Assembly (NCBI GenBank): GCA_965200355.1
Contig: OZ241351.1
Coordinates: forward strand, 1,564,163-1,628,162
DNA: 64,000 nucleotides
Direction of reading: 5' to 3'
Source: an uncultured Candidatus Binatia bacterium
GTDB lineage: Bacteria; Desulfobacterota; Binatia; Bin18
Of this stretch, positions 13,089 to 63,598 are shown piece by piece (position 1 is the stretch's first letter; the number at the start of each line of letters is the position of its first letter). A program made the position numbers and the translations under genes. A model generated the notes under the pieces. The model was not told the DNA's origin, did no database searches, and was given only the letters and a program-made list of their open reading frames with translations.

Positions 13089-13112
13089 GAGGGAACGGGC
13101 CTCCTTTTTGGG

Positions 13113-43084: not shown

Positions 43085-43087
43085 CTT

Positions 43088-44830: not shown

Positions 44831-44878
44831 GGCGAGAAGAGCGGCAGAGTGTGGAGACGGGAAGGAGCCCAGGGCGCG

Positions 44879-46123: not shown

Positions 46124-46179
46124 CTTGATTCTCAGGAGGCTCAGGACTATCAGTACGAAAGCCGAAAGGAAATCCCGCA

Positions 46180-48170: not shown

Positions 48171-49478
48171 TCACGGCTTTATCAAGCCAATCACGTATTC
48201 CTGGTGCATTCGTTCCTCGATTTGTGAATGTCTTTGTGACCCCCAGCGGGCCGGCATCATGCGTTTGTCGCGGGCCAGATGGCGAACGCCAATGCCGGTC
48301 AACTCAAAGCCAACTTTTTCACCGAGGGCGGCCAAGCCTTTATGGGTTTCGACATCCAGACCGCGGAGGTTTGAGGTGCCAACAACAATCACTGCTGGCT
48401 TGCCTTTTTTCAAAACGCGCCCCATCTCCCCGATTACCGCGGCCATCTCACCGAAATAGCGCCGCAGGGCCGCGGCCTTTTTTGCGTCTCGTTCGGCCAG
48501 TTGTGTCAGCGTTGTTTCGCATTGTCGGGGTAAATCGTTGAATTGAGTCGGGCCGGCCGTGTCGTGTCCTAGATAGTGCGCGCGAATCCTGGACAGGGTG
48601 TCGATAGGCCAACCAAACCAGACCAGCGAGAACTTATGCGCCCGCATGTAATCAATCGCGTTGTTGGCATAGGGTGGTGAGGTCACGATGAGATCAACGC
48701 TGGCAGACGGCAAGCCAGTGTTGGCCGCGCCGGCCGCCAGAACGCGGGCAGGGTGCTGTGGTGTCGTCGTATAGGCGGCATTGGTGCTGAGGGTCTGTTT
48801 CAGTCGCTTGGTGAATTCGACGAACCCCGAGTTGGGTTTTTTGTCAACGACCCTATGCGGGCGCGTATGCGCCAAGTCGCGGGCCAGCGAAACGCCGCCG
48901 GATTTTGCAATAATGGTTGACGAAAAAACAATCTTGAAGAAAGTTTGCAGCCCCTCTGGTTGGACTTTTTCGATGCCTTGCAACAGCGCGAGGAGTTCCA
49001 ACTGCTGTTGGGGGACAAACCAGAAATCAATAAACGCGCGCGTTTTCGGATCAAAACGCCGGTCCAGGGCGTATTCCAGTTGGTCACGGTCTCGGTGCAG
49101 GGCACGTTGGGCTGCATGGATCAACCCGGTTCCGGTTTCCCATGCGTAGGCTGCGTTGACAGGACGCAGCTTGGCCGTCGCAATCAGGCGCGCGAGGGGG
49201 TCAATATCACAGCCGATGGCCCGCCGGCCCAGACGCGCGGCCTCTACCAGGGTCGTGCCTGAGCCGGACATGGGATCAAGCACGACCTCGCCGGCGTCCG
49301 TGAAAGATTCGATGAAAAACTGTGGGAGTTGTGGCGGAAATTTAGCGGGAAAGGGATGCCACGTATGAGTGGTGTGCTTTTGGTTTGCGCCGTGGAAATC
49401 CAGGTCGGCGCGTAAGGCTGCCGGCAAGCGGGTACGGCAATGAGCGTGCAGACGGTTTCCTGGAGTACTCGTCATCTC
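48171..49478 (-). CDS. DNA amino-methyltransferase (N6-adenine or N4-cytosine; motif I then motif IV order, alpha-class), apparently orphan
   Basis: Start set at MTSTPGN; the upstream part of the ORF is low-complexity and overlaps the protease gene. Motif I DPMSGSGTT, motif IV SPPY (IVTSPPYANNAIDY). No restriction-endonuclease candidate adjacent. Confidence 0.7.
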   Translation of the reverse strand, partial: EMTSTPGNRLHAHCRTRLPAALRADLDFHGANQKHTTHTWHPFPAKFPPQLPQFFIESFTDAGEVVLDPMSGSGTTLVEAARLGRRAIGCDIDPLARLIATAKLRPVNAAYAWETGTGLIHAAQRALHRDRDQLEYALDRRFDPKTRAFIDFWFVPQQQLELLALLQGIEKVQPEGLQTFFKIVFSSTIIAKSGGVSLARDLAHTRPHRVVDKKPNSGFVEFTKRLKQTLSTNAAYTTTPQHPARVLAAGAANTGLPSASVDLIVTSPPYANNAIDYMRAHKFSLVWFGWPIDTLSRIRAHYLGHDTAGPTQFNDLPRQCETTLTQLAERDAKKAAALRRYFGEMAAVIGEMGRVLKKGKPAVIVVGTSNLRGLDVETHKGLAALGEKVGFELTGIGVRHLARDKRMMPARWGSQRHSQIEERMHQEYVIGLIKP

Positions 49479-49587
49479 GGAGGTGGTAAGCAGCTTTTTG
49501 TTTATCGGACCGTCGGGACCAGGCCTGAATTGCCCCGACGGCGGGAAAACCGTGCACAATGGAGCGTCAGGCGGTGAAACCGAGGAG

Positions 49588-50622
49588 CTACGTTGCCTGG
49601 AGCGCTTCTGCACTATCCGGGTTTTTGGGGGTGGGGGCCGGACGAAAATACCGCTCTCTGTCCGAGGAACGCACGGTAACGTCTTTGATCTCGGTCCCGT
49701 GGAGGAGGGTGAGGGTGATATCGGCCCCGGCCTCCCCAACCGCCCACAGCTTGCGATAGAAGTCGGCTTGGTCTTTGACCGGCTGACCGGCAACCTTGAG
49801 GACCAAATCGTTGATCTGCACCCCGGCTTGCTCTGCCGGCCCGTCCGGTGCCACAAACATGATAATCAGCTTATCGCGGAACTCCTCGGTAAAGAGTCCG
49901 AGCCAGGGCCGCGGGGCGGCCTTGGTGCGGCCGGTCCGAATCAGGTCGGTGAGGATGGGCTTGAGATGGTCAATCGGCACAAACATATTCCCGGCCAAAG
50001 ACTCCCGGCCGGGCAGGGCGTCATTGACTAACAGCGAGCCAATGCCCAGCAGCTTGCCGTCCGGTCCAATCAGCGCAGCGCCGGCATAGCGGGGATGTGG
50101 CGGGGCGGTGAAAATGGCGTCTTCGAGCAGGTATTCCCAATAGCCGGCAAATTCTCGCCGTGAGGTCACCAAAGTCGGGCGGACCGAAGCCGCATTGCTG
50201 TCGCTGGCAATAATGACTTCTGTCCGCTCAGCCAAGTCGGCAGACCTGCCAAGTGGCATGGGGGTCACGTTGAGGGGTTCGTTGGCGCGTAAAAGACCAA
50301 AACCGGTTTGGGTGTCATGGGCCACAACGGTGGCCAGGATGGGTTTCCCGTCTATGCCCGTGACCTCAACCCGGCGGGCTTCCATGACCAAATAGCCGAT
50401 GGTGAGAATATGCCCCTGGGTATCAATGACCACGCCGCTCCCGCTCCGTTGTTCCCCAAGAAACTGGGCCGTGCGCGCACTGGCCGGGACCTCAGCCCGA
50501 ATCGTCACCATGGCGGACAGGACATCGCTGGCGACGGGCTCCGGAACGGCCAACTGCGGGCTGAACACCGGGGTCAGGAGACCGACCCAGAACAGCAGTA
50601 ACGACGATGGGCGGGTATTCAT
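49588..50622 (-). CDS. HtrA/DegP-like trypsin-fold periplasmic protein with one PDZ domain; catalytic Ser (and probably Asp) substituted
   Basis: Signal peptide, trypsin-fold, PDZ (GVQINDLVLKVAGQPV). The position aligned to GNSGGPL reads YAGAALIGP (Ser to Ala). Confidence 0.55.
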   Translation of the reverse strand: MNTRPSSLLLFWVGLLTPVFSPQLAVPEPVASDVLSAMVTIRAEVPASARTAQFLGEQRSGSGVVIDTQGHILTIGYLVMEARRVEVTGIDGKPILATVVAHDTQTGFGLLRANEPLNVTPMPLGRSADLAERTEVIIASDSNAASVRPTLVTSRREFAGYWEYLLEDAIFTAPPHPRYAGAALIGPDGKLLGIGSLLVNDALPGRESLAGNMFVPIDHLKPILTDLIRTGRTKAAPRPWLGLFTEEFRDKLIIMFVAPDGPAEQAGVQINDLVLKVAGQPVKDQADFYRKLWAVGEAGADITLTLLHGTEIKDVTVRSSDRERYFRPAPTPKNPDSAEALQAT

Positions 50623-50624
50623 AA

Positions 50625-51641
50625 TCAGACTCTCTGTGCAGACTGCTCTGCTTCTAGCGCCAGGTTTGTGGAAGAGTCAAGAGTGAGGCCGGGCGAGAGA
50701 GGCTGCTCGGCAGCATGGTGGAAACTGGCTGTTTTCGGGTCATACCCGCGGGCGGTCAGGGTGATCTGAAAACGCGGTCGCCCGTTCGCCGTGCCGTATG
50801 ACACGATCCGATACAAGTGGTAGCGTGAGCGCCGCTGTGGCCGCCGACCAATCGCCGCGGAGGCGGGGACCCCGACAACCGGAATCGGCCCCCAGGGTCC
50901 GGGGATACTCGCCCTGACGGTGCGGTGCACATGGCCGTGCAGAATAAGCTCCGCGCCAGTTTTGGCGAGCACGGCCCGTAAGTCAGCCGCGTCGGTGAGG
51001 CGGCGGCGGGCCGTGAGGGCGATGGGTTGGGGCGGATGGTGAATGAGCACGACCCGACACAAGGGCGTGTTTGCCAAGGCGTGCAGGAGCCGCTCAAGTC
51101 GGTCGAGTTGCGTTTGACCGACCGTGCCTGAAGCAGAGAAGGGGGCTGTTGCGCGCGCGGTTGAGACGCCGACCAGGGCGACCGGTCCGCAGGTCCGCAG
51201 GGTTGGAAACTCGGTTGGCGGAAAGTCTGGGGGCAGCCGCGTCGGACCTGACCACGTATCCGGCAGGATATGCGAGCGCATATAGTCGCCCCAATATGCC
51301 CACGGACAAGATTCGCTCCGGCGCGTATAGGTGTCATGGTTGCCGGGGATCAGGGAAACGCGCTGTGGGCCGCCCATTTTTTGCAACCACGGGAGGGAGG
51401 CGGAGAACTCGTCTTCGAGCGCCACATTCGTCAGGTCGCCGGTAATGACCACATGGCCCGGCCCTTGGGTGTGTAAATCGTCAATCAGCGCGGCCAGGAC
51501 TTCGGGGCGGTATTCCTTGCGACGCCGCAAGGACCACGACACGACGCCCAAGACGCGCTTGTTCAGAATATCTCCGGGACGCCGGACCCGGACCGGGGTG
51601 ACGTGCAGGTCTGATAAATGGGCAAGCGTAAAGGCTGGCAT
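50625..51641 (-). CDS. Calcineurin-like metallophosphoesterase
   Basis: LSDLHV...VVITGDLTN...GNHD...HGHVH motif series. Confidence 0.8.
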   Translation of the reverse strand: MPAFTLAHLSDLHVTPVRVRRPGDILNKRVLGVVSWSLRRRKEYRPEVLAALIDDLHTQGPGHVVITGDLTNVALEDEFSASLPWLQKMGGPQRVSLIPGNHDTYTRRSESCPWAYWGDYMRSHILPDTWSGPTRLPPDFPPTEFPTLRTCGPVALVGVSTARATAPFSASGTVGQTQLDRLERLLHALANTPLCRVVLIHHPPQPIALTARRRLTDAADLRAVLAKTGAELILHGHVHRTVRASIPGPWGPIPVVGVPASAAIGRRPQRRSRYHLYRIVSYGTANGRPRFQITLTARGYDPKTASFHHAAEQPLSPGLTLDSSTNLALEAEQSAQRV

Positions 51642-51779
51642 GGTGTGTTGCTCCAGATGGTGCTCTCCAATCTATACCACCTCTCTGGCGTATGATAAGA
51701 CCGCCCGGCCGGGGGCAGCAGCTCGGGGTGACGACTGGCCGGCGGTGGTCAAGTTGCTCGGTGACGCAGAGGAGCGAGA

Positions 51780-53015
51780 TTGATGAAGCCGATGGCGGGA
51801 GCCGGGCGGGTGCAGGTATGGCTCGCCGAACAATCAGAGGCCGGAGCGCAGGCTGAAAACGCTGCCACGATTCCGGTCGAAGTGTGGGGCCTCTCACCGG
51901 TAGAACGCCTCCGGCGCACCCTCCGGGCCGCGGGGGTGCCTGAGGCGCAGATTGCAACAGGCCCACGCCGTCCTCCGGTTCCCCCTGACAGCCCCCTCCT
52001 CGTTTTTCGTACCGATTATGTTTTTGACGAGCGCTTAATCCGCGTATTGCTGAAGAAGAGTCTTGAGCGGAGCGGTGGCCGTAGCCTGGCGCTCGTCGAT
52101 CCCGATACCCCCGCAAGCATTGTCGCGCTTGTGACATCAGGCAGTCAGACCGGAGCGCTGCCGGCCGGCCCGACCGGTATGGATGCAGTGCCGCGGGAAC
52201 ACCTGCACTGCCGAGTGCCGAATGACCTTGTTGCTGCCTATTCTTCGGCCCTGCGTAAATACGACCCACCCTATCTTCTCCGGGTGGGGGCGCACTCACG
52301 GACCCAGATTGAAAATCATCTGTTTCGGGCGTCGTATAAGGGGATTACCGACGTGGTGACCAAATGGGTCTGGCCGCTGCCGGCCCGCGCTGTGACGCGC
52401 CGGCTCGCCCGCGCCCATGTTGCGCCCAATATCGTGACCGGGCTGAGTTGGCTGCTGGTGAGTGTCACGACCTGGCTCTTTGTTGAGGGACAATTTGGCT
52501 CTGGCTTAGTATGTGCCTGGCTCATGACCTTTTTGGATACCGTGGATGGCAAGCTGGCCCGCGTCACCTGCACCACAAGTCGAATGGGCCATGTGCTGGA
52601 CCACGGCCTTGACCTCATCCACCCGCCATTCTGGTATATCGCCTGGGCGACGGGCCTGGCCGGCAGTTTTTCTTCGGCCCTGCTCTGGCAGGAGCCGGTC
52701 GTGGCGATTATCGTTGGCGGGTATCTGCTCGGACGGCTTCTCGAAGGGCTCTTTTTGCTGGTGTTTCACCTGGAAATTCACTCGTGGCGGCCCATTGATT
52801 CGTTTTTTCGGACCATTACCGCCCGCCGGAATCCGAACCTGATTCTCTTGACGCTCGGGACCCTGGCCGGTCGTCCCGACCTGGGCTTCTGGCTGGTGGC
52901 GGTCTGGACCGTCTGTTCTCTGGGGTTTCACACGCTGCGCCTGGGCCAAGCCTGTGTGCAACGCTGGCGTGGCCGGCCGATTCACACCTGGCAGGAAGTC
53001 GGGAGGCCGGCATGA
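51780..53015 (+). CDS. CDP-alcohol phosphatidyltransferase-family membrane protein with N-terminal NTP-transferase-like domain, copy 2 (paralog of 44879..46123)
   Basis: DTVDGKLARVTCTTSRMGHVLDHGLDLIHP motif. Overall collinear similarity to copy 1 (FRASYKGITDVVTKWVWP vs FWSNYKGSTDFFTKYVYP). Confidence 0.65.
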   Translation: MMKPMAGAGRVQVWLAEQSEAGAQAENAATIPVEVWGLSPVERLRRTLRAAGVPEAQIATGPRRPPVPPDSPLLVFRTDYVFDERLIRVLLKKSLERSGGRSLALVDPDTPASIVALVTSGSQTGALPAGPTGMDAVPREHLHCRVPNDLVAAYSSALRKYDPPYLLRVGAHSRTQIENHLFRASYKGITDVVTKWVWPLPARAVTRRLARAHVAPNIVTGLSWLLVSVTTWLFVEGQFGSGLVCAWLMTFLDTVDGKLARVTCTTSRMGHVLDHGLDLIHPPFWYIAWATGLAGSFSSALLWQEPVVAIIVGGYLLGRLLEGLFLLVFHLEIHSWRPIDSFFRTITARRNPNLILLTLGTLAGRPDLGFWLVAVWTVCSLGFHTLRLGQACVQRWRGRPIHTWQEVGRPA

Positions 53016-53111
53016 GGCACAAGGGGGCGGCGCATGGGGCCCAGCGCCGGCCGTATCAGCCAGGAATGACGCTTGTGGACAGCATAGGTCGATCTGTATT
53101 CCGGGGCTTCC

Positions 53112-54089
53112 GTGCGACTCGGGCTGTTCAGTAATTGTCAGGCCGGTCTGAGCCGGGGGTCTCTGGGGGCGGTTCAACAGGCCCTCAAGCACGCGCCCGA
53201 GGTCGTGCATGTGACAACGCGGTCGAGCGCAGAGGTGCCCGAAGCGCTGGCCGACCTCGCTCGCCGGGGTGTGACGCTCCTTGCGGTGAATGGCGGAGAT
53301 GGCACGCTGCAACGTGTCTTGACTGAGGTGCTGACCGGCTCGGCCTTTGAACCGCTGCCGGCGATTGCGCCGTTGCCTGGCGGACGAACAAATATGAGCG
53401 CCGCGGACATGGGCAGTACGGCGTCGCCGGCCGCTGGACTTATGGCGTTAATCCGCGCGTTGCGGACCAATACGCTGGAGCAGCGGGTCGTGCGCCGGCC
53501 GGTCTTGCGCGTCGCCTGCGGCCCGGACACGAGCCCGCAGTATGGTCTGTTTTTCGGTGCGGGGGTGATCCAGCGAGCGCTCGCCTTGAAGCATCGGCTC
53601 TATCCCAAACGGCGTTTGCAGGGCCTGTTCGGGGCCGGACTCTTTTTAGGCGGGGCCCTGCTGCGGGTGGCGAGCGGTGCCCCCAGCGGCACGTTTGCCC
53701 CAGATGATATTGGCTTGGCGTTTGACCAGCGGGCCAAGGAGCCGTTCAGCGAGCAGCTGGCACCACAGCCGTTGCAACTCGTGATGGCAACCACGCTGCA
53801 CCGGCTCTTCCTGCGGCTCTGTCCGTTTTGGGGAACCGAAGCGGCCCCGCTTCGGTTTACTGCCATTGCGGCACATGCCGCCCGGAGCCCGGTTGCTGTC
53901 TGGAAGGTCTTACGTGGGCTGCCCCCGCCGCGGTTTGCGCTGGACTCGGGCTATTGCAGTCACAATGTGGAGCAGCTGACCGTGCGCCTGGATTGCGGTT
54001 TTACCATTGATGGCGAACTCTTTGAGCCGCAGCTGGGTCGGACCCTGCATCTTGCGACCGACCAGCGCCTCCGTTTTATTCGCGCCTAA
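53112..54089 (+). CDS. DAGK_cat/YegS-family lipid kinase (diacylglycerol / sphingoid-base / ceramide kinase-like)
   Basis: LAVNGGDGTLQRVL motif, which is the catalytic GGDG loop. GTG start. Confidence 0.7.
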   Translation: MRLGLFSNCQAGLSRGSLGAVQQALKHAPEVVHVTTRSSAEVPEALADLARRGVTLLAVNGGDGTLQRVLTEVLTGSAFEPLPAIAPLPGGRTNMSAADMGSTASPAAGLMALIRALRTNTLEQRVVRRPVLRVACGPDTSPQYGLFFGAGVIQRALALKHRLYPKRRLQGLFGAGLFLGGALLRVASGAPSGTFAPDDIGLAFDQRAKEPFSEQLAPQPLQLVMATTLHRLFLRLCPFWGTEAAPLRFTAIAAHAARSPVAVWKVLRGLPPPRFALDSGYCSHNVEQLTVRLDCGFTIDGELFEPQLGRTLHLATDQRLRFIRA

Positions 54090-54103
54090 GTAGGCGAGAC
54101 AGT

Positions 54104-55087
54104 ATGCGAGATGACGTGCACGCACCCCTGCCGGCTCTGACCGCCCTCTTGGCTCAAGAGTGGACCCAGCCGGTGCCTGAAGCCGCCCACGTCGTGGCCG
54201 CCGCAATTCAACAGCGTCATGCCGAGGCAATAGATGCCGTACTGTTTTACGGTTCCTGCCTCCGCACTCAGCAGACTGCCGACGCGGTGCTCGACTTTTA
54301 CGTGCTCGTCCGCTCGTACCGGTCTTGCTATGACAGGCGGCTGCTCAGATGGCTGAACGCCCTGCTGCCGCCAAATGTGTTCTATATTGAGGCCAGGCAG
54401 GGGAGGCGGACGCTACGGGCGAAATACGCGGTGATCTCGACCGCGGATTTCGAGCGGGCGACGACTCCAACCGCTGTCCCCGCTCTGATCTGGGCCCGCT
54501 TCTGTCAGCCAGCCCGGCTCGTGTTTGTACGTAGCGAGGAAGTGCGGGAGCGCGTCATACACGCCGCAACACAAGCGACGCTGACCTTTCTTTCGCGCGC
54601 GGTTCTCTTTTTTGCGCAGCGTGACTTGCGTCGCCCTTTTCACTTGGCTGACCTGTGGCAGAGGGGATTTCGAGAGACGTATCGGACCGAGCTGCGGACC
54701 GAACGGCCGGAAACCATCCGGGCATTATACGCCGCCTGGCCGGAACGCTACGACCGAATCGCACGCTTGGGGCTCAAACTGCTGGAGCAGCAGGAGAGAT
54801 GGGCCTGTCAAGAACGCGCTGGACGATGGGCGGTTGCGCTGCCACGGCGGACCCGCTGGGCCGGCCGGGTCAGTTGGGCCGGCCGGGCGACCGGAGCAAA
54901 ATGCCTGTATGCGGTGCGGCTCCTCAAAACCGCGCTGACCTTTGACGATTGGCTGCCCTATGTCTTATGGAAACTGGGCCGGCATAGCGGGGTCTGGGTG
55001 GAACTGTCAGAGCGACAGCGACGTTACCCCCTGCTCTTCGGCTGGCCGGTATTGTTCAGGCTTCTTCGCCAACGTGCTCTGCGTTAA
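54104..55087 (+). CDS. Hypothetical protein; possible nucleotidyltransferase-fold (Tam41/Mmp37-like phosphatidate cytidylyltransferase) protein
   Basis: AVLFYGSCLR...VLDFYVLV resembles a minimal hG[GS]...D NTase motif. Assignment is weak. Confidence 0.25.
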   Translation: MRDDVHAPLPALTALLAQEWTQPVPEAAHVVAAAIQQRHAEAIDAVLFYGSCLRTQQTADAVLDFYVLVRSYRSCYDRRLLRWLNALLPPNVFYIEARQGRRTLRAKYAVISTADFERATTPTAVPALIWARFCQPARLVFVRSEEVRERVIHAATQATLTFLSRAVLFFAQRDLRRPFHLADLWQRGFRETYRTELRTERPETIRALYAAWPERYDRIARLGLKLLEQQERWACQERAGRWAVALPRRTRWAGRVSWAGRATGAKCLYAVRLLKTALTFDDWLPYVLWKLGRHSGVWVELSERQRRYPLLFGWPVLFRLLRQRALR

Positions 55088-56192
55088 GCGGGGCAGCGCG
55101 CCGCCGGCCCATCCGGGCGACCAGATGCCTGAGGGCCGAGAGAATACCGCGTTCACTCGTCTGCTGATAAACACTCGCGGGAGAGAGTTCCCCTTGCAAT
55201 TGCCGATGGAGCCGACCGAGATGATGGTAGGGGACATTGGGTAAGAGATGGTGGAGGGCGTGATAGCGGAGACCCACCGGAGCGGCAAGAACGGTGAAGA
55301 CTGGCCAGCCACATAGATTGACGGAATCGAGCAGTTGTTCGGTGATATTCAACCGCCGTCCGGTATGGTCATACCGATGCGCGGCTAAGGTTCGGATTTG
55401 GTTGACGATCAACATGCCGGCCGTCACGATATACCACTGCACGAGCCAGACCCCAGGGATCTGTCCAGCATACCAGCTTACGCCCACCAGCCAGGCGACC
55501 AGCGCGGCTGCCCATTCTTGACTGCGCCACCGTCGTCGATACTGCCTCCCCGGCAGGGGGCGGCGATACGCAACATTGATCACCAGGGTTGAAGCCCGCT
55601 GAATAACGATCTTGCGCAACGGAGGAATCACTGATGAAAGAGGACCGATGATCCCCCAGCGCAGCGGCAACAAAAGTGGCACAACGCAGACGCTCAGCAC
55701 AAACCAGACCAAGCCGAGAGGAGTGCCATGAGCGAGCGGCATATATTCGGGGTCGCCGACTGTTCCGAAGGTGTGAGAGCGGTGATGGTCTCCATGTGCA
55801 CCCACATACATGAGACTCGGCAGCATGACCGGCAGACCGACCACGGCGTGCCAGGCGATTTCAAAACCAGGCAGGCTGCCCCGCTTCTGGTGGGCAATTT
55901 CATGAATGAATAAGGCCGCGCGGAGAAGGGCCAGGAGAGCCACGCTCGTCGCGGCGCAATAGGCCGGAGAGCCAAATGAGTGCTGGACGCTCAACCAAAA
56001 GGCCGTCCAGCCCACAAGAGAAGACAGCAAAAGGTCCAGCCAATAGAGGCCGGCCTTGGGCCGGAATATGGAGGCAAAGCGCTTCCGTATCTGCGCGGCG
56101 AACTGCTCGTCCGCTACTTCGCCAAGACCTTCGTTTTGAAATGCCACAGGATGAATGCTCCGGTTTGACCTTGGGCTCTGCCGCCTCATCAT
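55056..56192 (-). CDS. Membrane fatty-acid/sphingolipid desaturase family protein
   Basis: Three His boxes (HEIAHQ, HGDHHRSH, HALHHLLPNVPYHH) with 4 TM helices. Confidence 0.8.
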   Translation of the reverse strand: MMRRQSPRSNRSIHPVAFQNEGLGEVADEQFAAQIRKRFASIFRPKAGLYWLDLLLSSLVGWTAFWLSVQHSFGSPAYCAATSVALLALLRAALFIHEIAHQKRGSLPGFEIAWHAVVGLPVMLPSLMYVGAHGDHHRSHTFGTVGDPEYMPLAHGTPLGLVWFVLSVCVVPLLLPLRWGIIGPLSSVIPPLRKIVIQRASTLVINVAYRRPLPGRQYRRRWRSQEWAAALVAWLVGVSWYAGQIPGVWLVQWYIVTAGMLIVNQIRTLAAHRYDHTGRRLNITEQLLDSVNLCGWPVFTVLAAPVGLRYHALHHLLPNVPYHHLGRLHRQLQGELSPASVYQQTSERGILSALRHLVARMGRRRAAPLNAEHVGEEA

Positions 56193-56383
56193 ACAGGAGC
56201 CTCTATAAGAGCGACCGGAACAGCCCTGTCAAGAGCAGAGGGTTAAGAGCGAAGGGTCAAGAGCGAAGGGTGAATCGATGGGGAAGCCTCTGAGGAACAG
56301 CGTCATTCTCAGGCAGGCACGCGGCTGGCTGTGTTGCCCCTTGGTTAAAAGGGAGAAATCTGTTATCTAGCGTCCGACTTTAC

Positions 56384-57433
56384 ATGATTCGAGTTACCGT
56401 GAGCACCCGAGCAATAACACCCCGCGCCCCGCTGGTGAAGGCTGGGACCCGCATTCTTGTGACCGGAGGAACTGGCTTTATTGGCTCGCACCTTGTGGAT
56501 GCGCTCATCGAACAGGGCGTCCGGCCGCGGGTGCTCGTTCGCCCGACGAGTGATCCCGCCCGCCTCGCTCACGAGCAGACCGGTAAGGTCGAGTTGGTCG
56601 CGGGGGCACTCGAAGACCCCGACAGCCTGGCACGGGCGGTCTCTCAAGTTGATACCGTCTTTCATCTTGCCGCGGTGACAAAGGCGCACACAGAAGAGGC
56701 GTATCTGGGCGCGAATGCTGAAGGAACGCAGCGGCTCGTTCAGGCCATGCGGGCCGCACAGCCGCGCCCGCAGCGTCTTGTCTATCTCAGTTCACTGGCC
56801 GCCGCGGGTCCGGCTCAGGCCGGTCGGCCGGTTGAACCGCACGATACCCCCTCCCCCATTACCGCCTATGGACGCAGTAAGCTCGTCGGGGAACGAGCCT
56901 GCTTGGCCGCGTCCGATACTTTCGAGGTCGTCGCCTTACGGGCGCCGGTTGTGTACGGTCCACGAGAAAAAGACTTTTTTTTGCTCTTTCGTCTGGCCTC
57001 TCGGGGCCTTTTGCCAACGCCAACAGGACCGGATGGTGTGGTGCAGCTTGTCCATGTGACGGATTTGGTCCAAGCCCTGCTCCGTGCGGCTCTCATGCCT
57101 GAGGCGCGCGGGGTCTATCACGTGGCGGAATCCCGTCCCTATGCCTGGGGTGAGATTGCGGCCTATTTGGGTCAGGCCGTTGGGCGTTCGGTTCGTCTGG
57201 TCCGTATCCCACGATTGCTGGTGCGAATGGCGGCAACGGTCAGCGAAGGAGGCGCAGCCGTCCTCGGGCGCGCAACGATATTCAACCGTGAAAAAGTCAA
57301 GGAACTCCTGGTTCCTGGCTGGCTGTGCGAAACCGCGCTGGCCAAGCAAGAGTTAGGATTTGAGGCGCAGATCCCGCTGGCCACCGGATTTGCGGCAACC
57401 GCGGCATGGTACAAACAACAGAAATGGTTATAG
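56384..57433 (+). CDS. NAD(P)-dependent epimerase/dehydratase-family (extended SDR) protein; candidate CerR-type ketosphinganine/ceramide reductase
   Basis: ILVTGGTGFIGSHLV Rossmann motif; 349 aa. Immediately upstream of the Spt and GNAT genes. Confidence 0.75.
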   Translation: MIRVTVSTRAITPRAPLVKAGTRILVTGGTGFIGSHLVDALIEQGVRPRVLVRPTSDPARLAHEQTGKVELVAGALEDPDSLARAVSQVDTVFHLAAVTKAHTEEAYLGANAEGTQRLVQAMRAAQPRPQRLVYLSSLAAAGPAQAGRPVEPHDTPSPITAYGRSKLVGERACLAASDTFEVVALRAPVVYGPREKDFFLLFRLASRGLLPTPTGPDGVVQLVHVTDLVQALLRAALMPEARGVYHVAESRPYAWGEIAAYLGQAVGRSVRLVRIPRLLVRMAATVSEGGAAVLGRATIFNREKVKELLVPGWLCETALAKQELGFEAQIPLATGFAATAAWYKQQKWL

Positions 57434-57530
57434 CGAACACCGTCATTGGGCTTGGGGGATTGAGGTGAAACCGGGACCGCAACATGTCATGCAAACTGAC
57501 AATCGAGGATGTCACGGAGAGGGGGACGGG

Positions 57531-58724
57531 ATGAACCTTTTCGAGAAATGCGCTCGTTTTACGCGTGCTCGGGAGGCTCAAGCAACTGGCTATTATCCGT
57601 TTTTTACACCCATAGAGTCGTCTGAAGGGACTGAAGTCGTCGTGCGCGGTGAGCCCAAGGTGATGATGGGCTCAAATAACTATCTCGGCCTCACCCACCA
57701 TCCAAAGGTGTTGGAAGCCGCTGAGGCCGCTCTCAGGCGCTATGGCAGTGGGTGCACTGGCAGCCGCTTCTTAAATGGGACGCTGGACTTGCACGATGAA
57801 CTCGAAGCGCGTCTGGCTCGTTTTCTCAACAAAGAGGCCGCGCTCGTTTTCAGTACAGGCTATCAGACCAATCTCGGTATCCTGGCAACCCTGATCGGAA
57901 AAAAGGACTATCTCTATCTCGATAAGCTCGACCACGCCAGCGCGGTAGACGGCTCTCAGCTTGCCCACGGGACGGTGCTGCGCTATCCGCACGGAGACCT
58001 CGACGCCCTGGAGCAGCAATTGCACAAGACCCCGGCCAAGGCGGGCAAGCTGATTGTTACGGATGGCATTTTTTCTATGGAGGGCGATATCGCCGACCTG
58101 CCGAGTTTGGCGGCCCTGGCCGAGCAGTACCAGGCCGAGATCATGGTTGATGATGCCCACTCCCTTGGGGTGTTAGGCCAGAACGGTGGCGGGACGGCGC
58201 AGCATTTCGGGGTAGAGGACCGGGTCGGTCTTATTATGTCGTCCTTCTCCAAGTCTCTGGCAGCGATTGGCGGTGTGGTGGCTGGTCCAGAGCCCGTTAT
58301 TCACTATCTGAAGCACCACGCCCGCTCTTTGATTTTCAGCGCCAGTATGCCGCCGCCGTCGGTGGCCACGGTGTTGACCGCCTTGCAGATTATTGAAGAA
58401 GAGCCCGAACGACGGACCGCCCTGTGGCGAAATACGCGCCGGATGCAGGCTGGGCTCAAGCAGCTCGGCTATGACATCGGAACGAGTGACACGCCGGTGA
58501 TTCCTATTATTGTCGGCGATATGTGGCTGATGGGCATGATCTGGAAAGAACTGTTTGACTCCGGCATTTTTACCAACCCGGTTATCCCGCCGGCCGTCCC
58601 TGAGAATTCGTGTCGGATTCGGATTTCCATGATGGCCACCCACACCGATGAACAGATCGACTTTGTCCTAGCGGTCTTTGCCCGTATCCGGCCCCACATC
58701 CAGATGGAAAAAGTTGCGGTGTAG
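57531..58724 (+). CDS. spt: Alpha-oxoamine synthase family enzyme, serine palmitoyltransferase (Spt)-like
   Basis: Start at MNLFEKC with SD GGAGAGGGGG. MMGSNNYLGL and FSKSLAAIGG (PLP-lysine region) are typical of the SPT/KBL/BioF family. Lipid context favours Spt. Confidence 0.7.
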   Translation: MNLFEKCARFTRAREAQATGYYPFFTPIESSEGTEVVVRGEPKVMMGSNNYLGLTHHPKVLEAAEAALRRYGSGCTGSRFLNGTLDLHDELEARLARFLNKEAALVFSTGYQTNLGILATLIGKKDYLYLDKLDHASAVDGSQLAHGTVLRYPHGDLDALEQQLHKTPAKAGKLIVTDGIFSMEGDIADLPSLAALAEQYQAEIMVDDAHSLGVLGQNGGGTAQHFGVEDRVGLIMSSFSKSLAAIGGVVAGPEPVIHYLKHHARSLIFSASMPPPSVATVLTALQIIEEEPERRTALWRNTRRMQAGLKQLGYDIGTSDTPVIPIIVGDMWLMGMIWKELFDSGIFTNPVIPPAVPENSCRIRISMMATHTDEQIDFVLAVFARIRPHIQMEKVAV

Positions 58725-58751
58725 AAGCGTTGCCGCCGTGCCGCGCCAGAG

Positions 58752-59894
58752 ATGCCCAGAGATGTACGGATAGACCCGGTCCGTGACCGGCAGGACTTGC
58801 GCCAGTTCATCCACCTGCCGTGGCAGCTGTATCGGGACGACCCGGCCTGGGTCCCGCCCCTGCTTTTTGATCTGAAAAAACTCCTCTCTCCCAAACGGCA
58901 CCCCTTCCACCAACACGCCGACGTCCAATATCTTCTTGCCCACCTGAATGGGCAGGTCGTGGGACGGATTGCGGCCATTGTCAATCATCGGCATATCCAG
59001 TTTCACAACGAGTCAGTGGGCTTCTTCGGTTTTTTTGAGAGTATTGACGACCAGGGGGTTGCCCAGGCGTTATTAACCAGCGCGGAACACTGGGTCGGCA
59101 CGCACGGGGTGCGGAGCATTCGGGGACCGATGAGTTTCTCGACCAATGAGGAGTGCGGGTTGTTGATTGATGGTTTCAGCACGGCCCCCATGGTGATGAT
59201 GCCCCACCAGCGCCCCTACTACGCCCGCTTGCTCCGCACCGCGGGCTATGCCAAGGCGCGGGACCTGTTGGCGTATTTCATTGATCTGCGGAAAGACGCG
59301 ACTATCCCGGAACGGCTCGTGCATGGGGTGCAACGGCTCCAGCAGAAACAGGCCATCACGATCAGGCAGATTCATTTGGCTCGATTTGAAGAAGAAGTGC
59401 GCCTGTTGCAGGCCATCTACCACAGGGCCTGGGAACATAACTGGGGCTTTGTGCCGATGACTGAGGCTGAGGTAGACCTGCTTGCGGATTCGCTTCGCCT
59501 CGTTGCGGACCCCCGGCTGTGCCTTATTGCCGAATTGGAGAATAAGCCGGTTGGTTTTACCCTCGCCCTTCCAGACTATAACCAGGTCCTCCAGCGCATG
59601 AATGGCCGCCTCTTCCCGTTGGGGGCGCTGAAGTTGCTCTGGTACAAGCGGCGGATTGACGCGCTCCGGGTCCTGTTGCTTGGCACCAATCCAGATGTTC
59701 GGGTACGCGGTCTGGATGCGATGCTGTACCTCAAACTCTGGCAGGACGTGCCGGCCTACGGTTACCGGCGCGTGGAATGTTCGTGGATTCTGGAAGAGAA
59801 TTGGGCGATGCGGCGCGGTCTCGAACGCATGGGCGCGCAGGTATATAAAACTTACCGGATATTCGAGAAAACATTGTCAGCGGGGGACAAGTGA
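58752..59894 (+). CDS. GNAT-fold protein of the bacterial ceramide synthase (bCerS)-like family
   Basis: N-terminal FIHLPWQLYRDDPAWVPPL motif and ~380-aa length resemble the bCerS-type GNAT family. 28-nt gap after spt. Confidence 0.5.
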   Translation: MPRDVRIDPVRDRQDLRQFIHLPWQLYRDDPAWVPPLLFDLKKLLSPKRHPFHQHADVQYLLAHLNGQVVGRIAAIVNHRHIQFHNESVGFFGFFESIDDQGVAQALLTSAEHWVGTHGVRSIRGPMSFSTNEECGLLIDGFSTAPMVMMPHQRPYYARLLRTAGYAKARDLLAYFIDLRKDATIPERLVHGVQRLQQKQAITIRQIHLARFEEEVRLLQAIYHRAWEHNWGFVPMTEAEVDLLADSLRLVADPRLCLIAELENKPVGFTLALPDYNQVLQRMNGRLFPLGALKLLWYKRRIDALRVLLLGTNPDVRVRGLDAMLYLKLWQDVPAYGYRRVECSWILEENWAMRRGLERMGAQVYKTYRIFEKTLSAGDK

Positions 59895-60148
59895 CAGCAG
59901 ACAATCAATGCGGTGCAGGCCGGCGCTTCCTGTATCACTGGTTTCGACGGGAGACGGTGAAGCGCGCCCTGAAAGTGGCCAGTGTCGTGGGACCCATCCT
60001 GACCGTGATCAATCAATATGACCTGCTTTTGAATCTCGAATTCTCTCCTCGGCTCGGTCTCAAGATCGCCCTGACCTTCCTTGTGCCGTACAGCGTTTCG
60101 TCCTATTCGTCCGCCAGGGCCTATATGGACAGAGAGCGTTCCGGCTGA
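59891..60148 (+). CDS. Small hypothetical membrane-associated protein (85 aa)
   Basis: GTGA overlap with the preceding gene. One hydrophobic segment. No recognisable family. Confidence 0.2.
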   Translation: MTADNQCGAGRRFLYHWFRRETVKRALKVASVVGPILTVINQYDLLLNLEFSPRLGLKIALTFLVPYSVSSYSSARAYMDRERSG

Positions 60149-60162
60149 CACCGGCCGCCACG

Positions 60163-60978
60163 CTAGAACGCGGCAAGGGGAGTTGCGAACTCCTGCTCAG
60201 CCTGAGGATTGGCAATCGGGTCGGCGCTCAGGTCCACCTCCTCGGCCGTCCGCATGGTGCCAATGATCCAGTCGGCCAAGACGTTCACCACGTTGAGATT
60301 CTGGTAGGGATAACGATGGTGAATATAGTGATGGGTACGCACGAATCGAAACGCCTGGGTGCGTTCAATCCAGCGGTTGCGAGGGACGTGTATACAATAG
60401 TGAATATACTCGTACAGGGCGTAGTCGAGGGCGAGGGCCAGGAGCCCCCCAACACAGACGGGCCAGCCAAACGCCCAGCCGAAGCCGAGCAGGAGGGGCA
60501 GATGCAGCCCGATGAGCAGGGGCGCATTCCACCACGCAAAGGTGACTTTTTTGGGATCAACTCCAGGCTGGATATGATAGGTCGCGTCAGCCCGGAAGAG
60601 CCCGTGGTGGACGAGGGCGTGAGCCCGGAATGAGTAGGGTAGGGTCAGGGTGTGCATCAGATATTTGTGCAACGCCCATTCAAAAAAGCTGGAATACAGA
60701 ATGAGTCCAATAAAGCCGATTGTGCCCTTTGCCAGTCCCCAGAGAAGCGGTTCCAGTGTCAATGTGTGCTCCCTTTCCTGCGTTCCCCTCCCCCACCTCA
60801 GCTCTTCGCCTCGCGAACAGAGGAAGGACGCGCTGGGGATGCGGTGTGCAATTCGTGCGTGCACGCTCTTGATGAAGTCTTGACTGTATAGAGAAAAGCG
60901 CCCGGCCTGGCAATAGCCTCTCCGTTGGCGCGTGCCGGCTGGACCGTGCTGGTTCCAGGCGGCGGCAGGTGCGATCAT
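60163..60978 (-). CDS. Fatty-acid hydroxylase superfamily protein (sphingolipid/fatty-acid hydroxylase or sterol-desaturase-like); start uncertain
   Basis: His boxes HKYLMH, HALVHHG and HHYIHHRYP in the C-terminal 190 aa. The N-terminal ~80 aa of the ORF are low-complexity, so the true start is probably internal. Confidence 0.6.
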   Translation of the reverse strand: MIAPAAAWNQHGPAGTRQRRGYCQAGRFSLYSQDFIKSVHARIAHRIPSASFLCSRGEELRWGRGTQEREHTLTLEPLLWGLAKGTIGFIGLILYSSFFEWALHKYLMHTLTLPYSFRAHALVHHGLFRADATYHIQPGVDPKKVTFAWWNAPLLIGLHLPLLLGFGWAFGWPVCVGGLLALALDYALYEYIHYCIHVPRNRWIERTQAFRFVRTHHYIHHRYPYQNLNVVNVLADWIIGTMRTAEEVDLSADPIANPQAEQEFATPLAAF

Positions 60979-61055: not shown

Positions 61056-62186
61056 ATGTCTACACAAGCCGCGATTCCCATGCAGGACTATTTTGTCATT
61101 TCCGCAGACTGCCATGTACTGGAGCCGCCCGACCTCTGGGAAAAGCGGATTGCGGCCAAGTTTCGCCACCGGATTCCGCGTTTGACGGTCGATACCAACG
61201 GGCGGAAATGGCTGGTCGTTGAAGGGCAGGACAAAAAGCGTATCCGCGACTTCACCCTGAGCGGAGAAGATTTAGAGCGGGCCAAGGGCGGGAGTTTCGA
61301 CCTAGAACGGCGGCAGCAGGATTTGGCCAGGGACGGGATTGACGCGGAAGTCATTTATCCCAATCGGGGGCTGCTGATGTGGACCTCGCCTGACCCGGCC
61401 ATGCAAACCGCCATGTGTCGGGTCTGGAATGACTGGGCGATTGAGGTGTTCAGCCCAGCGCAAAAACGCTCCGTCCCCACCGCCGCCATTGCCCCGCAAG
61501 ACGTTGACGCTGCCGTACAGGAGGTCCAGCGCGTTGCCAAGCTCGGCTATAAAACCGTTTTTCTGCCCGTCACCGTTCCAGACCAGCCCTATAATCTCAC
61601 ATTATACGATCCCCTGTGGGCAGCCATTCAAGAAACCGGGATGCCCCTGAGTTTCCACGTGGGAACGGGCAAAGACCCGCGCACCGCCTCGGGCAATGGT
61701 GGTGCGATTATTAACTACGTGGTCCATGCCTTATCAACGGCGATTGATCCGGTGGTCCATCTGTGCGCGTCTGGGGTGTTGGAGCGTTTCCCCGCCCTCA
61801 AGTTTGTGACGGTCGAAGCCGGGATTGGCTGGCTGGCCTGGACACTCTGGGTCATGGACGAGGGTTTTCACAAACACCACTTCTGGATTGCGCCCAAGCT
61901 GTCGATGCCGCCGAGTGAGTATTTTCGCCGTCAAGGCTATGCCACCTTTCAGGACGATCCGGTTGGACTGGAGACGCGCCAATGGATTGGTATTGACCGG
62001 CTCTTGTGGGGGGATGATTATCCGCATCACGAAGGCACTTGGCCGCGTTCACAGGAAGCCATTGACCGGACTATGGGCGATCTCACCGAGTCCGAACGAC
62101 GCCAGGTCTTGGGGCTCAACGCGGCCCAACTATACGGTTTTGATCTGCCCACGGGTCAGCCAGATGCTGAGGAGAGTCGCATATGA
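61056..62186 (+). CDS. Amidohydrolase-2 family metal-dependent hydrolase/decarboxylase
   Basis: SADCHVLEPP...HVGTG...GDDYPHHEG, the TIM-barrel metal-ligand pattern of the ACMSD/LigI-type family. Confidence 0.75.
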   Translation: MSTQAAIPMQDYFVISADCHVLEPPDLWEKRIAAKFRHRIPRLTVDTNGRKWLVVEGQDKKRIRDFTLSGEDLERAKGGSFDLERRQQDLARDGIDAEVIYPNRGLLMWTSPDPAMQTAMCRVWNDWAIEVFSPAQKRSVPTAAIAPQDVDAAVQEVQRVAKLGYKTVFLPVTVPDQPYNLTLYDPLWAAIQETGMPLSFHVGTGKDPRTASGNGGAIINYVVHALSTAIDPVVHLCASGVLERFPALKFVTVEAGIGWLAWTLWVMDEGFHKHHFWIAPKLSMPPSEYFRRQGYATFQDDPVGLETRQWIGIDRLLWGDDYPHHEGTWPRSQEAIDRTMGDLTESERRQVLGLNAAQLYGFDLPTGQPDAEESRI

Positions 62187-63598
62187 GCGCCGGACGGCTT
62201 GAGACGCTACGCCTGGACTGGGGGGAGGCCGAGAAAGCGCCGGCAGACCGGAAGCGCTGGCTGGGCGCGTGGCTGGTCAGCCGAGACGGAGAAGAGAGCG
62301 ACTATTTTTACGACGGTCCCGGCGGGCGGCACACGACACATCGGGTGCCGCCCGAAGCTATCGGCTTTCGCCTGCGGTGGTACCCGAGTGAAAATGAGGT
62401 CAGCATCAACCTTGAACTGGGTCCTATGGCCAGTGTGGTTGACGACTACCTGTTTGCCGAGCCGGCTGGCCCGGATGCCGAGGTGCTGATTGGCGAAGAT
62501 TTTTCCTCCCCGTATGCCTCGCACCAAGGCAAGGACCTGGGGGTCACCACCTGGAAGGGCGAGGAGTGGAAGCGGGGCGGGGGCACGACCTGGGGCTGGT
62601 ATAGCTACGACCCCGAACTGGACCTGTTCTACTACGGGACCGGAAATCCAGGCGCCTGGAATCCAGACCAGCGGCCGGGGGATAATAAGTGGTCGATGAC
62701 GCTGTTTGCCCGGAATCCTGATACGGGCCAAGCCAAGTGGGCGTATCAAATGACCCCGCACGATGCGTGGGATTATGACGGAATCAATGAAAACGTGCTG
62801 ATTGACCTGCCTAATGGAGACGGAAAAGTCCAAAAGGTTCTGGTCCACTTTGACCGCAACGGCTTTGCCTACAAGGTTGACCGGACATCCGGCCGGGTCC
62901 TGGCCGCGGATAAATTTGGCCATGTGAACTGGGCCAAAGAGATTAACCTGGAGACCGGCCGGCCAGTCGAAAACCCCGACAAGCGTACAAAAGAAGGGGT
63001 GAATACGGAAGGCATCTGCCCCGGAGCCATGGGAACCAAGGACCAACAGCCGGTGTCCTATTCACCGAGAACCAATCTTTTTTATGTGCCAACCAACCAT
63101 CTGTGCATGGATTATGAGGGAATGAAAGTCCGCTATATTGCCGGCGTGCCCTATGTTGGCGCGGTTGTCAAAATGTTCCCCGGCCCTGGCGGGCACCGAG
63201 GGGAATTCATTGCCTGGGACCCGGTGGCTGGTGAGAAAAAATGGGGCATTAAGGAAAAATGGTCGGCCTGGAGCGGGGCGCTTTCGACCGGCGGTGATGT
63301 GGTGTTCTACGGGACCATGGACGGCTGGTTCAAGGCGGTCCACGCTGTGACTGGCGAAGAACTGTGGAAGTTCAAAGCCGGCTCTGGCATTATTGGCGCG
63401 CCCATGACCTATCTCGGACCGGATGGCAAGCAGTACGTGGCGATTCTCTCCGGGATCGGTGGTTGGTCGGGTCTCGTCGTTGCCGGCGACCTGTCAACGG
63501 ACGATCCCACCGCGGCGCTGGGTGCGGTGGGCGCATTTGCCGACCTGGGAAAAGACACAAATAAAGGCGGGATGTTGTACGTCTTTGCGCTTGAGTAA
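62183..63598 (+). CDS. xoxF: 5'-truncated PQQ-dependent alcohol/methanol dehydrogenase (XoxF/MxaF-type) lacking signal peptide and N-terminal propeller blades; probable gene remnant
   Basis: C-terminal ~370 aa are collinear with MDH large subunits (WGWYSYDPELDLFYYGTGNPGAWN, PHDAWDYDG, ...GGMLYVFALE). The N-terminal ~100 aa are unrelated and non-secretory. ATGA overlap with the amidohydrolase. Confidence 0.65.
   Translation: MSAGRLETLRLDWGEAEKAPADRKRWLGAWLVSRDGEESDYFYDGPGGRHTTHRVPPEAIGFRLRWYPSENEVSINLELGPMASVVDDYLFAEPAGPDAEVLIGEDFSSPYASHQGKDLGVTTWKGEEWKRGGGTTWGWYSYDPELDLFYYGTGNPGAWNPDQRPGDNKWSMTLFARNPDTGQAKWAYQMTPHDAWDYDGINENVLIDLPNGDGKVQKVLVHFDRNGFAYKVDRTSGRVLAADKFGHVNWAKEINLETGRPVENPDKRTKEGVNTEGICPGAMGTKDQQPVSYSPRTNLFYVPTNHLCMDYEGMKVRYIAGVPYVGAVVKMFPGPGGHRGEFIAWDPVAGEKKWGIKEKWSAWSGALSTGGDVVFYGTMDGWFKAVHAVTGEELWKFKAGSGIIGAPMTYLGPDGKQYVAILSGIGGWSGLVVAGDLSTDDPTAALGAVGAFADLGKDTNKGGMLYVFALE

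Follow-up and report, generated by a model that had tools for sequence, protein, structure and literature searches.

A window of 64,000 nucleotides from an uncultured Candidatus Binatia bacterium (contig OZ241351.1, assembly GCA_965200355.1; "the window" is this whole stretch of DNA) carries a locus of ~23 kb, at about 37.4–60.8 kb, that we read, with a probability of roughly 0.7, as the counterpart of the Caulobacter-type phosphosphingolipid cluster CC_1152–CC_1168. The basis of this assignment is homology, protein folds, intact catalytic motifs and conserved gene order, and all substrates named below are predicted from these. The arrangement of the genes is far beyond chance, since the entire order from a phosphoesterase gene to a GNAT gene is kept in ~10 Binatia-type loci and the head-group cassette within it recurs in dozens of species from several phyla. 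These and all later neighbourhood counts come from the best 80 of at least 587 confirmed stretches in a species-representative genome scan with the 327-aa protein of the cassette, and the 80 loci belong to Binatia, Myxococcota/"Deltaproteobacteria", Nitrospirales, Desulfobacterales, Alpha- and Gammaproteobacteria and a few others.

The seven open reading frames (ORFs) named in a first-pass annotation of positions 51780–60978 were all recovered where it had placed them and with the domains it had given them, and the gene calls in public assemblies (two near-identical contigs) agree with the ORFs of that region. The inventory had omitted a Tam41-like gene, an 85-aa NrtS-like gene, a phosphoesterase gene and a 14-kb upstream half, and its boundaries were too narrow, as homologues of the same cluster reach about position 37369. 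The two halves of the locus (37369–47015 and 50625–60762) are separated by genes for a SnoaL-like protein, a DNA methyltransferase and an HtrA-type protease, which are kept only in close Binatia or not at all among the 80 loci and are not counted as parts. The closest relatives of the 327-aa protein among the matches listed are encoded on Candidatus Binatia chromosomes, at 80–85% identity, and Spt is 91–95% identical in those loci. No RNA families were found in the window using Rfam, and promoter- and terminator-like sites at 50–61 kb are no commoner than in shuffled sequence.

Ceramide core and head-group cassette

Reference loci were collected by tblastn of the GNAT protein against a plasmid collection, some records of which are mislabelled chromosomes. 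The reference proteins are positional orthologues in Sphingomonas, Pseudomonas and Roseomonas, and Caulobacter genes were matched by domain description. The three-gene ceramide core put forward by the first-pass annotation stands: a cerR-like gene (56384–57433), spt (57531–58724) and a bcerS-like gene (58752–59894) lie on the plus strand as a conserved operon with intergenic gaps of 97 and 27 nt, and their products match over their full length the positional orthologues in the sphingolipid clusters of Sphingomonas, Pseudomonas, Roseomonas and E. coli (yghO). In Sphingomonas parapaucimobilis the replicon reads NAD(P)H-binding protein, acyl carrier protein (ACP), Spt, histidine kinase, LptF, LptG, desaturase (opposite strand) and N-acetyltransferase. 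The same order is given for the S. wittichii orthologues of Caulobacter cerR, acpR, spt, lptF2/G2 and bcerS (CC_1164/1163/1162/1154), Swit_3897–3908, with Swit_3908 as the CC_1154 orthologue (PMC11324152 supplement), and the S. parapaucimobilis GNAT gene holds that position. Against this locus the window proteins align at 33% identity over 383 aa for the GNAT (E = 8e-79), 31% for the reductase (E = 4e-39) and 38% for Spt (E = 2e-95). A 652-aa "ATP-binding protein" between spt and lptF in Sphingomonas was considered as a CpgB/CpgC fusion and rejected, being a hybrid histidine kinase.

The ORF of the predicted serine palmitoyltransferase (SPT) opens at 57360, and its start is most likely at 57531, giving 397 aa, because the gene call in public assemblies and the NCBIfam models begin there. 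It matches PF00155 with 194 bits and carries the motifs HAS at residue 135, DDAHS at 207 and SFSKS at 238. Clustering with BioF or Kbl, which the first-pass annotation had named as a refuting outcome, is not what the scores show; the synthase lies nearer Spt, scoring 529 bits with the NCBIfam model SerpalmtaseCFB (NF047600) and 398 with Spt-beta, compared to 394 with bioF and 374 with Kbl. In the Protein Data Bank (PDB) its best-scoring characterised relative is the SPT of Sphingobacterium multivorum (3a2b/8guh; 432 bits over residues 3–392), followed by Sphingomonas SPTs at 303 and 297 bits, and the best Kbl/BioF-type chain reaches 274. Identity to the Spt of the three proteobacterial clusters is 38–42%.

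The tandem-GNAT N-acyltransferase has a weak PF00583 match and is placed in the bCerS/YghO family by homology over its full length. Ding et al. assigned bCerS at E ≤ 1e-30 and coverage ≥ 50% against reference sequences (PMC11334938). The window protein matches its positional orthologues, the cluster GNATs of Sphingomonas, Pseudomonas and Roseomonas, at 33–40% identity, E = 1e-78 to 2e-82 and coverage of at least 94%; the values are 38–40% for the Pseudomonas plasmid and Roseomonas mucosa proteins and 39% for E. coli YghO. An alignment of eight sequences including YghO is collinear from end to end with 51 invariant columns, and among these is DPxWVPPL, so the N-terminal motif that had been quoted for this protein is real and invariant across the proteobacterial sphingolipid-cluster GNATs aligned. 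A sequence search of the PDB gave no match for the GNAT. An AlphaFold2 model (mean predicted local distance difference test 84) has a tandem-GNAT fold, with tandem-GNAT amine N-acetyltransferases as the top Foldseek matches (E = 5e-15; glucosamine N-acetyltransferase and MshD), and the modelled fold suits N-acylation of a long-chain amino alcohol.

The remaining core protein is an extended short-chain dehydrogenase/reductase (SDR) of the epimerase family (PF01370) with GGTGFIG at residue 28 and YGRSK at residue 162. It is 28–35% identical to the spt-adjacent SDRs of the three proteobacterial clusters (E = 1e-33 to 1e-40; 116–135 bits), and its assignment as a CerR-like 3-keto reductase appears to rest mainly on position. 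The gene directly precedes spt, as it does in 11 Binatia-type loci, and opens the operon in all Binatia loci; in Sphingomonas, Pseudomonas and E. coli, too, an SDR gene adjoins spt.

Upstream of the core lies the four-gene head-group cassette (50625–55087), in which a metallophosphoesterase gene on the minus strand diverges from genes on the plus strand for a CDP-alcohol phosphotransferase, a lipid kinase and the 327-aa protein. Order and orientation are identical in Roseomonas mucosa, and the Pseudomonas plasmid carries the same cassette genes. Among the 63 of 80 loci that could be evaluated (at least 5 kb upstream present), the kinase gene directly precedes the Tam41-like gene in 61, the divergent phosphoesterase gene is found in 53, the CDP-alcohol transferase gene in 43 and all four together in 41. 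Within 10 kb of the cassette, spt is found in 21 of the 80 loci, the GNAT gene in 32 and the SDR gene in 19.

The CC_1158-like phosphoesterase (50625–51641; Pfam Metallophos) is 42% identical (E = 1e-53) to the Roseomonas gene product in the same divergent position. The CpgA-like transferase (51783–53015) combines a ~200-aa N-terminal cytoplasmic domain with PF01066 at residues 215–307, three hydrophobic segments and the intact motif DTVDGKLARx8Gx3Dx3D at residue 252, and is 46% identical to the Roseomonas cpgA-position protein over 376 aa (residues 32–405, including the N-terminal domain) and 42% to that of Pseudomonas. The CpgB-like kinase of DAGK/LCB5 type (53112–54089; PF00781) is 36% and 30% identical to the cpgB-position proteins of Roseomonas and Pseudomonas, with GGDG at residue 61 and no CxxxCxxC visible in the translation. 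A DAGK/LCB5 domain with GGDG and no CxxxCxxC is how the ceramide kinase CpgB is described (PMC10331486). For Caulobacter the equivalent domains are a calcineurin-type phosphoesterase in CC_1158, PF01066 with a cytoplasmic N-terminal domain and three transmembrane helices in CC_1159/CpgA, the ceramide kinase CC_1160/CpgB, and the InterPro Tam41/Mmp37 domain IPR015222 in CC_1161/CpgC (PMC11324152 supplement S1). As full-length homologues of the cpgB- and cpgA-position genes, the kinase and the transferase keep the roles proposed for them in the first-pass annotation, a candidate ceramide kinase and a candidate head-group enzyme. In the closest relatives an extra 388-aa gene with an N-terminal hydrophobic, signal-like segment and no Pfam domain sits between the cpgA-like and cpgB-like genes (L007:7871–9037), as in most Binatia and Myxococcota loci; here only a 96-nt gap is found at its position, and tblastn located no copy elsewhere in the window.

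The fourth cassette gene (54104–55087, plus strand) encodes the 327-aa CpgC-like protein, which matches no Pfam or NCBIfam model even at E ≤ 10. It is 37% identical to the product of the gene after the kinase in both the Roseomonas and the Pseudomonas clusters (over 317–322 aa; E = 1e-54 and 1e-46). When PDB sequences were searched with a 32-homologue profile, the sole match, to a YGS...D nucleotidyltransferase, was insignificant. An exhaustive HMMER search collected 1552 clusters of the family at 50% identity, 1129 of them at E ≤ 1e-10, and one representative passes Pfam Tam41_Mmp37. Two natural fusions join the family to other enzymes: a 662-aa protein (P0491, L088:4390–6378) pairs DAGK_cat with the Tam41-like part directly downstream of a CDP-alcohol transferase gene, and a 594-aa protein (P0408) pairs a MobA-like NTP_transf_3 domain with it. 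The 327-aa protein is clearly Tam41-like, a putative nucleotidyltransferase of the Tam41/Mmp37 type. It differs from the Tam41/Mmp37 CDP-diacylglycerol synthases of known structure (PDB 6ig2 and 7ecd) in being only 14–15% identical to them and below the Pfam model, in having an extra C-terminal helical region at residues of about 248–322, and in its proposed substrate, which would be ceramide-1-phosphate and not phosphatidate. Zik et al. described the CpgC-type gene as having no conserved domain, and Olea-Ozuna et al. already proposed a nucleoside diphosphate-activated ceramide for CC_1161 and similar roles for other genes. The idea of a cytidine diphosphate-activated ceramide (CDP-ceramide) is therefore not new; what is new is the structural and comparative support from the Tam41 fold, the natural fusions and the cross-phylum adjacency.

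Export, lipid-modifying and accessory genes

Counterparts in the upstream half were found by searching the whole window with Pseudomonas, Roseomonas and Sphingomonas proteins. At its outer end, on the minus strand, lies a 758-aa fused LptF-LptG permease (37369–39645; PF03739 twice), a candidate for lipid extraction or export comparable to CC_1156/CC_1155. It scores 297 bits with the NCBIfam LptG model (cut-off 240) and 222 with LptF (cut-off 230), is 25–26% identical to the LptF/G of the Sphingomonas and Roseomonas sphingolipid loci, and occurs near the cassette in 7 of the 80 loci; it could instead be a housekeeping LptFG. LptF-LptG fusions recur at 41–44% identity beside a CC_1152-like gene in several Myxococcota/"Deltaproteobacteria" loci. 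The CC_1152-like nucleoside triphosphate (NTP) transferase gene of the window (39662–40534, plus strand; Pfam NTP_transferase/NTP_transf_3) is of the LicC/phosphocholine-cytidylyltransferase type, its product is 51% identical (E = 5e-75) to a Pseudomonas BYT-5 "phosphocholine cytidylyltransferase family protein", and it is found near the cassette in 24 of the 80 loci.

Three minus-strand genes follow. An 852-aa putative glycosyltransferase-like protein of the ELM1/GtrOC1 family (40526–43084; Pfam Mito_fiss_Elm1) is 37% identical over 765 aa (E = 6e-141) to the ELM1 gene product of the Pseudomonas cluster. An MsbA/HepA-type ABC exporter of 580 aa (43088–44830; Pfam ABC_membrane and ABC_tran), a candidate flippase, is 48% identical (E = 2e-178) to the spt-adjacent exporter of the Pseudomonas cluster and lies near the cassette in 26 of the 80 loci. 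The second CDP-alcohol phosphotransferase (44879–46387; PF01066) has an ORF of 502 aa, with the true start probably further downstream, an intact DSVDGKLARx8Gx3Dx3D motif at residue 357, and 35% identity to the Roseomonas cpgA-position protein. Both CDP-alcohol transferases of the locus most resemble enzymes with phosphorylated acceptors, namely archaetidylinositol-phosphate, PIP and DIPP synthases. The half closes on the plus strand with a CC_1153-like CofC/MobA-like nucleotidyltransferase gene (46179–47015; the ORF opens at 46068 and the first ATG is at 46179), which has a weak NCBIfam F420_cofC match (E = 2e-7). Its product is 44% identical to the Roseomonas NTP transferase adjoining bCerS and 36% to the Pseudomonas one, and 56 of the 80 loci have the gene close to the cassette. 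The same weak CofC similarity was reported for CC_1153 (PMC11324152 supplement).

Between the cassette and the core, on the minus strand, lies a membrane enzyme of the fatty-acid desaturase family (55056–56189; PF00487), a candidate ceramide desaturase or hydroxylase with the three His boxes HEIAH, HGDHH and HALHH. It is 40% identical (E = 2e-75) to the S. parapaucimobilis desaturase adjoining bCerS, and its gene is convergent after the Tam41-like gene in 24 of the 80 loci. Downstream of the core, an ORF for an 85-aa NrtS-like small membrane protein (59891–60148, plus strand; NCBIfam NrtS 29 bits, cut-off 25) overlaps the stop of the bcerS-like gene by 4 nt, giving an apparent translational coupling of the two, and is kept there only in the six closest Binatia loci. 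This ORF was tried as an ACP and rejected as NrtS-like. The last gene, on the minus strand, encodes a short membrane protein of the fatty-acid-hydroxylase superfamily (60163–60762, with the ORF running to 60978) that is loosely associated with the locus and syntenic in only 5 close relatives. Its start is most likely the TTG at 60762, giving 199 aa, because AAGGGAG precedes it and its cluster mates are 194–199 aa long. It carries the His boxes HKYLMH, HALVHH, HYCIH and HHYIHH and no Pfam match of its own, and its earlier description as a hydroxylase-type enzyme agrees with homologues at ~50% identity that carry PF04116.

Proposed pathway and competing explanations

In the pathway we propose, Spt would condense serine with an acyl thioester to give 3-ketosphinganine, the bCerS-like GNAT would N-acylate this product, and the CerR-like SDR would reduce the 3-keto group to yield dihydroceramide, which the desaturase-family enzyme and possibly the short hydroxylase-family enzyme may modify. 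The CpgB-like kinase would then form ceramide-1-phosphate and the Tam41-like CpgC homologue would use CTP to convert this into a CDP-ceramide-type intermediate, making it a proposed CTP:ceramide-1-phosphate cytidylyltransferase. One or both CDP-alcohol phosphotransferases may add a (phospho)alcohol head group, which in Caulobacter is phosphoglycerate, from units that the soluble CC_1152-like and CC_1153-like nucleotidyltransferases would activate. The metallophosphoesterase may remove a terminal phosphate or nucleotide, and the ABC exporter and fused LptFG would carry the anionic lipid outward. The substrates, the CDP-ceramide intermediate, the identity of the head group and the export role are all predictions from sequence.

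In Caulobacter, mutants in cpgB lack ceramide phosphate, and purified CpgB phosphorylates ceramide (PMC10331486). Mutants in cpgC lack ceramide phosphoglycerate, those in cpgA, CC_1152 and CC_1153 lack the bis-phosphoglycerate form, and CC_1158 has also been assigned to ceramide phosphoglycerate formation (PMC9393093, PMC10331486, PMC11324152). Counterparts of the same domain type are present in the window for 11 of the 17 Caulobacter genes, namely CC_1152, 1153, 1154, 1155/1156 (fused), 1158, 1159 (two copies), 1160, 1161, 1162 and 1164, and both loci share the cassette order of phosphoesterase/CDP-alcohol transferase, kinase and Tam41-like gene, followed by spt. Unlike Caulobacter, the window has cerR, spt and bcerS contiguous, LptF and LptG as one polypeptide, two CDP-alcohol transferases, a desaturase gene between cassette and core, and an ABC exporter with an ELM1-like protein, as in the Pseudomonas plasmid version; the host phylum also differs.

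The closest annotated loci that we read are the clusters of Pseudomonas sp. BYT-5 (pBYT5-2) and Roseomonas mucosa (p1), with 28–51% identity for 12 genes. Both differ from the window in having genes for an ACP and a fatty acyl-AMP ligase and in keeping lptF and lptG apart, and Roseomonas has a sterol-desaturase-family gene beside bCerS. The E. coli yghO locus (NZ_AP022222.1, 767732–797932) combines yghO with RefSeq-annotated spt, acyl carrier protein, epimerase-family protein, fatty acyl-AMP ligase, lptF and lptG; unlike the window, it has the ACP and ligase and no cpgABC-like cassette in the 30 kb examined. Of 5426 complete E. coli genomes, 4056 contain at least 80% of a 6.2-kb yghO query (3′ lptG, spt, ACP, epimerase-family gene, ligase and yghO). 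The three ceramide genes do not cluster in Bacteroidota (PMC11334938), whereas those of the window form one operon.

Several observations weigh against equating the locus with the Caulobacter cluster. Among the 80 loci, spt or bCerS lies within 10 kb of the cassette in only about 20–30. Counterparts of AcpR, AasR, the HIT protein, LptC2, the CC_1166 flippase and CC_1167 are absent from the window, and the comparisons rest on positional orthologues from other Proteobacteria rather than on Caulobacter sequences. The 529 bits scored by Spt are below the NF047600 equivalog cut-off of 640, with the other Spt models also below theirs, and the SDR is no closer to the CerR-position genes than to other extended SDRs (HpnA model, 116 bits). 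The Caulobacter cpgA mutant still makes the mono-phosphoglycerate lipid (PMC9393093, PMC10331486, PMC11324152), and therefore a simple route from the kinase through the cytidylyltransferase to CpgA must be incomplete. The sphingolipid pathway of Binatia is at present a prediction from genes. Finally, the search for dedicated ACP or acyl-ACP synthetase genes nearby that the first-pass annotation had suggested found none in the window (tblastn with three AcpR-position ACPs and one fatty acyl-AMP ligase). Because no such homologue is present and Spt has CFB-type affinity, its acyl donor is probably acyl-CoA. The Bacteroidota-type SPT of Sphingobacterium multivorum is likewise not known to be accompanied by a dedicated ACP gene.

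It is also conceivable, if unlikely, that the four-gene cassette works on glycerolipids, taking diacylglycerol through phosphatidate and CDP-diacylglycerol to a phospholipid phosphate and a phospholipid, and merely lies beside a ceramide operon. The best-characterised relatives of every cassette enzyme act in glycerolipid metabolism, most of the 80 loci have no spt or bCerS gene within 10 kb of the cassette, and in vitro the purified CpgB accepts diacylglycerol about as readily as ceramide (PMC10331486). However, deletion of cpgB in Caulobacter removes ceramide phosphate and not phosphatidate, and the cpgA and cpgC mutants lose ceramide phosphoglycerates only. The cassette is moreover contiguous with cerR-spt-bcerS in all Binatia and several alphaproteobacterial loci and shares one replicon stretch with the core in Pseudomonas and Roseomonas, and the CC_1153-like gene that accompanies it so often flanks bCerS in Proteobacteria. 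A different doubt concerns the product of the core itself, as the α-oxoamine synthase would make a deoxy-sphingoid or sulfonolipid-type lipid in place of a canonical ceramide if it used alanine, glycine or cysteate. Its scores below the equivalog cut-off of every NCBI Spt model would allow this, a solved cysteate-C-fatty acyltransferase is among its relatives (250 bits), and Ding et al. call such proteins only "Spt-like" (PMC11334938). We consider it very unlikely given the margin of ~130–180 bits for bona fide SPTs over all other α-oxoamine synthases, the identity to Spt proteins from three clusters with relatives that experiments have linked to ceramide, and the shared operon with bCerS-like and CerR-like genes.

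The least probable of the competing explanations, to which we give very little weight, is the link to aminoethylphosphonate (AEP) raised in the first-pass annotation, in which the CDP-alcohol transferase or transferases would move AEP from CMP-AEP to ceramide and produce ceramide aminoethylphosphonate. In its favour, genes ~40 kb upstream of the cassette encode an NTP transferase, a split phosphonopyruvate/sulfopyruvate decarboxylase and an AEP aminotransferase (TIGR03301, 363 bits against a cut-off of 361), and there are two CDP-alcohol transferases in the locus. CDP-alcohol phosphotransferases can in principle join a nucleotide-activated head group to a lipid alcohol, as Kennedy-type enzymes do. 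The AEP-type genes, however, lie between hpnK and hpnN within the hopanoid cluster (6411–15980; HpnJ, HpnI and HpnK above NCBI cut-offs and an HpnN-like transporter), with the closest gene of the sphingolipid locus ~21 kb away, and a phosphoenolpyruvate mutase domain was not found in the window ORFs of at least 200 aa that were scanned. Homologues of AepZ, Ppd and Hpn proteins occur near the cassette in none of the 80 loci, the examined stretches of the Pseudomonas and Roseomonas replicons have no AEP genes, and the kinase and Tam41-like enzyme point to activation of the lipid and not of the head group alone. Nor do the hopanoid and sphingolipid genes form the single locus that had been suggested, since unrelated genes lie between the two clusters (~16–37 kb), including metH, uvrB, thiolase-type genes, genes for Mla proteins and a restriction-modification system. 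The hpnK–hpnN insert itself (10171–13088) consists of the NTP transferase, the AepZ-type aminotransferase and the split phosphono-/sulfopyruvate decarboxylase. It may point to hopanoids, not sphingolipids, as the carriers of a phosphonate- or sulfonate-type decoration.

Flanking genes and significance for Binatia

Restriction-modification-type genes are found at 25562–32015 and 48171–49856, comprising a ResIII helicase-like gene, an endonuclease-domain ORF, a 930-aa N6/N4 DNA methylase and a second methylase. The second methylase (48171–49856) separates one half of the sphingolipid locus from the other, and only 2 of the 80 related loci have it. Beyond the locus, a pyrroloquinoline quinone (PQQ)-dependent dehydrogenase of 471 aa (62183–63598) abuts an amidohydrolase gene, and its Pfam match begins at model position 215 of 595. 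On a contig with an identical GNAT (L001:13432–16501) a 606-aa PQQ-dehydrogenase and two extra small ORFs are found instead, so the copy in the window, without its N-terminal third, looks like a strain-level deletion. The PQQ-dehydrogenase and cytochrome c genes in the flank are in keeping with the methylotrophy reported for the Binatia phylum (PMC8262859). Near the start of the window, a TonB-dependent receptor is split into two overlapping minus-strand ORFs, a barrel at 968–1843 and a Plug remnant at 1771–2901, and is possibly a pseudogene (968–2901); it adjoins an intact 882-aa receptor at 3483–6131.

The set of genes that the first-pass annotation took to be new has been described for Caulobacter and other Proteobacteria (PMC9393093, PMC11324152). 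Ding et al., who took neighbouring bCerS and CerR homologues as their criterion for "Spt-like" genes, a setting that the spt of the window shares, reported such genes from 40 phyla (PMC11334938), and CpgB homologues were noted as broadly distributed (PMC10331486). What is new is a near-complete phosphosphingolipid cluster in Binatia, an unsurprising member of a known system. For Binatia, a widespread phylum that is uncultured and in part lives with sponges, the published genome analysis makes no mention of sphingolipids, and we found no link between Binatota and sphingolipids in the literature searched.

With this locus, Binatia would join the lineages predicted to make complex anionic sphingolipids, and it shows nearly the whole Caulobacter-type gene set for synthesis and export travelling together well outside Proteobacteria. 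The main value of the comparison is its support for a CDP-ceramide route, which at this point is a proposal. Since the Tam41-like gene is almost always beside a ceramide-kinase-type gene, and sometimes fused to one, a nucleotide-activated ceramide intermediate is directly testable. For environmental lipidomics, the locus leads one to expect that bacteria are a source of the ceramide-phosphate-type lipids of sponges and soils.

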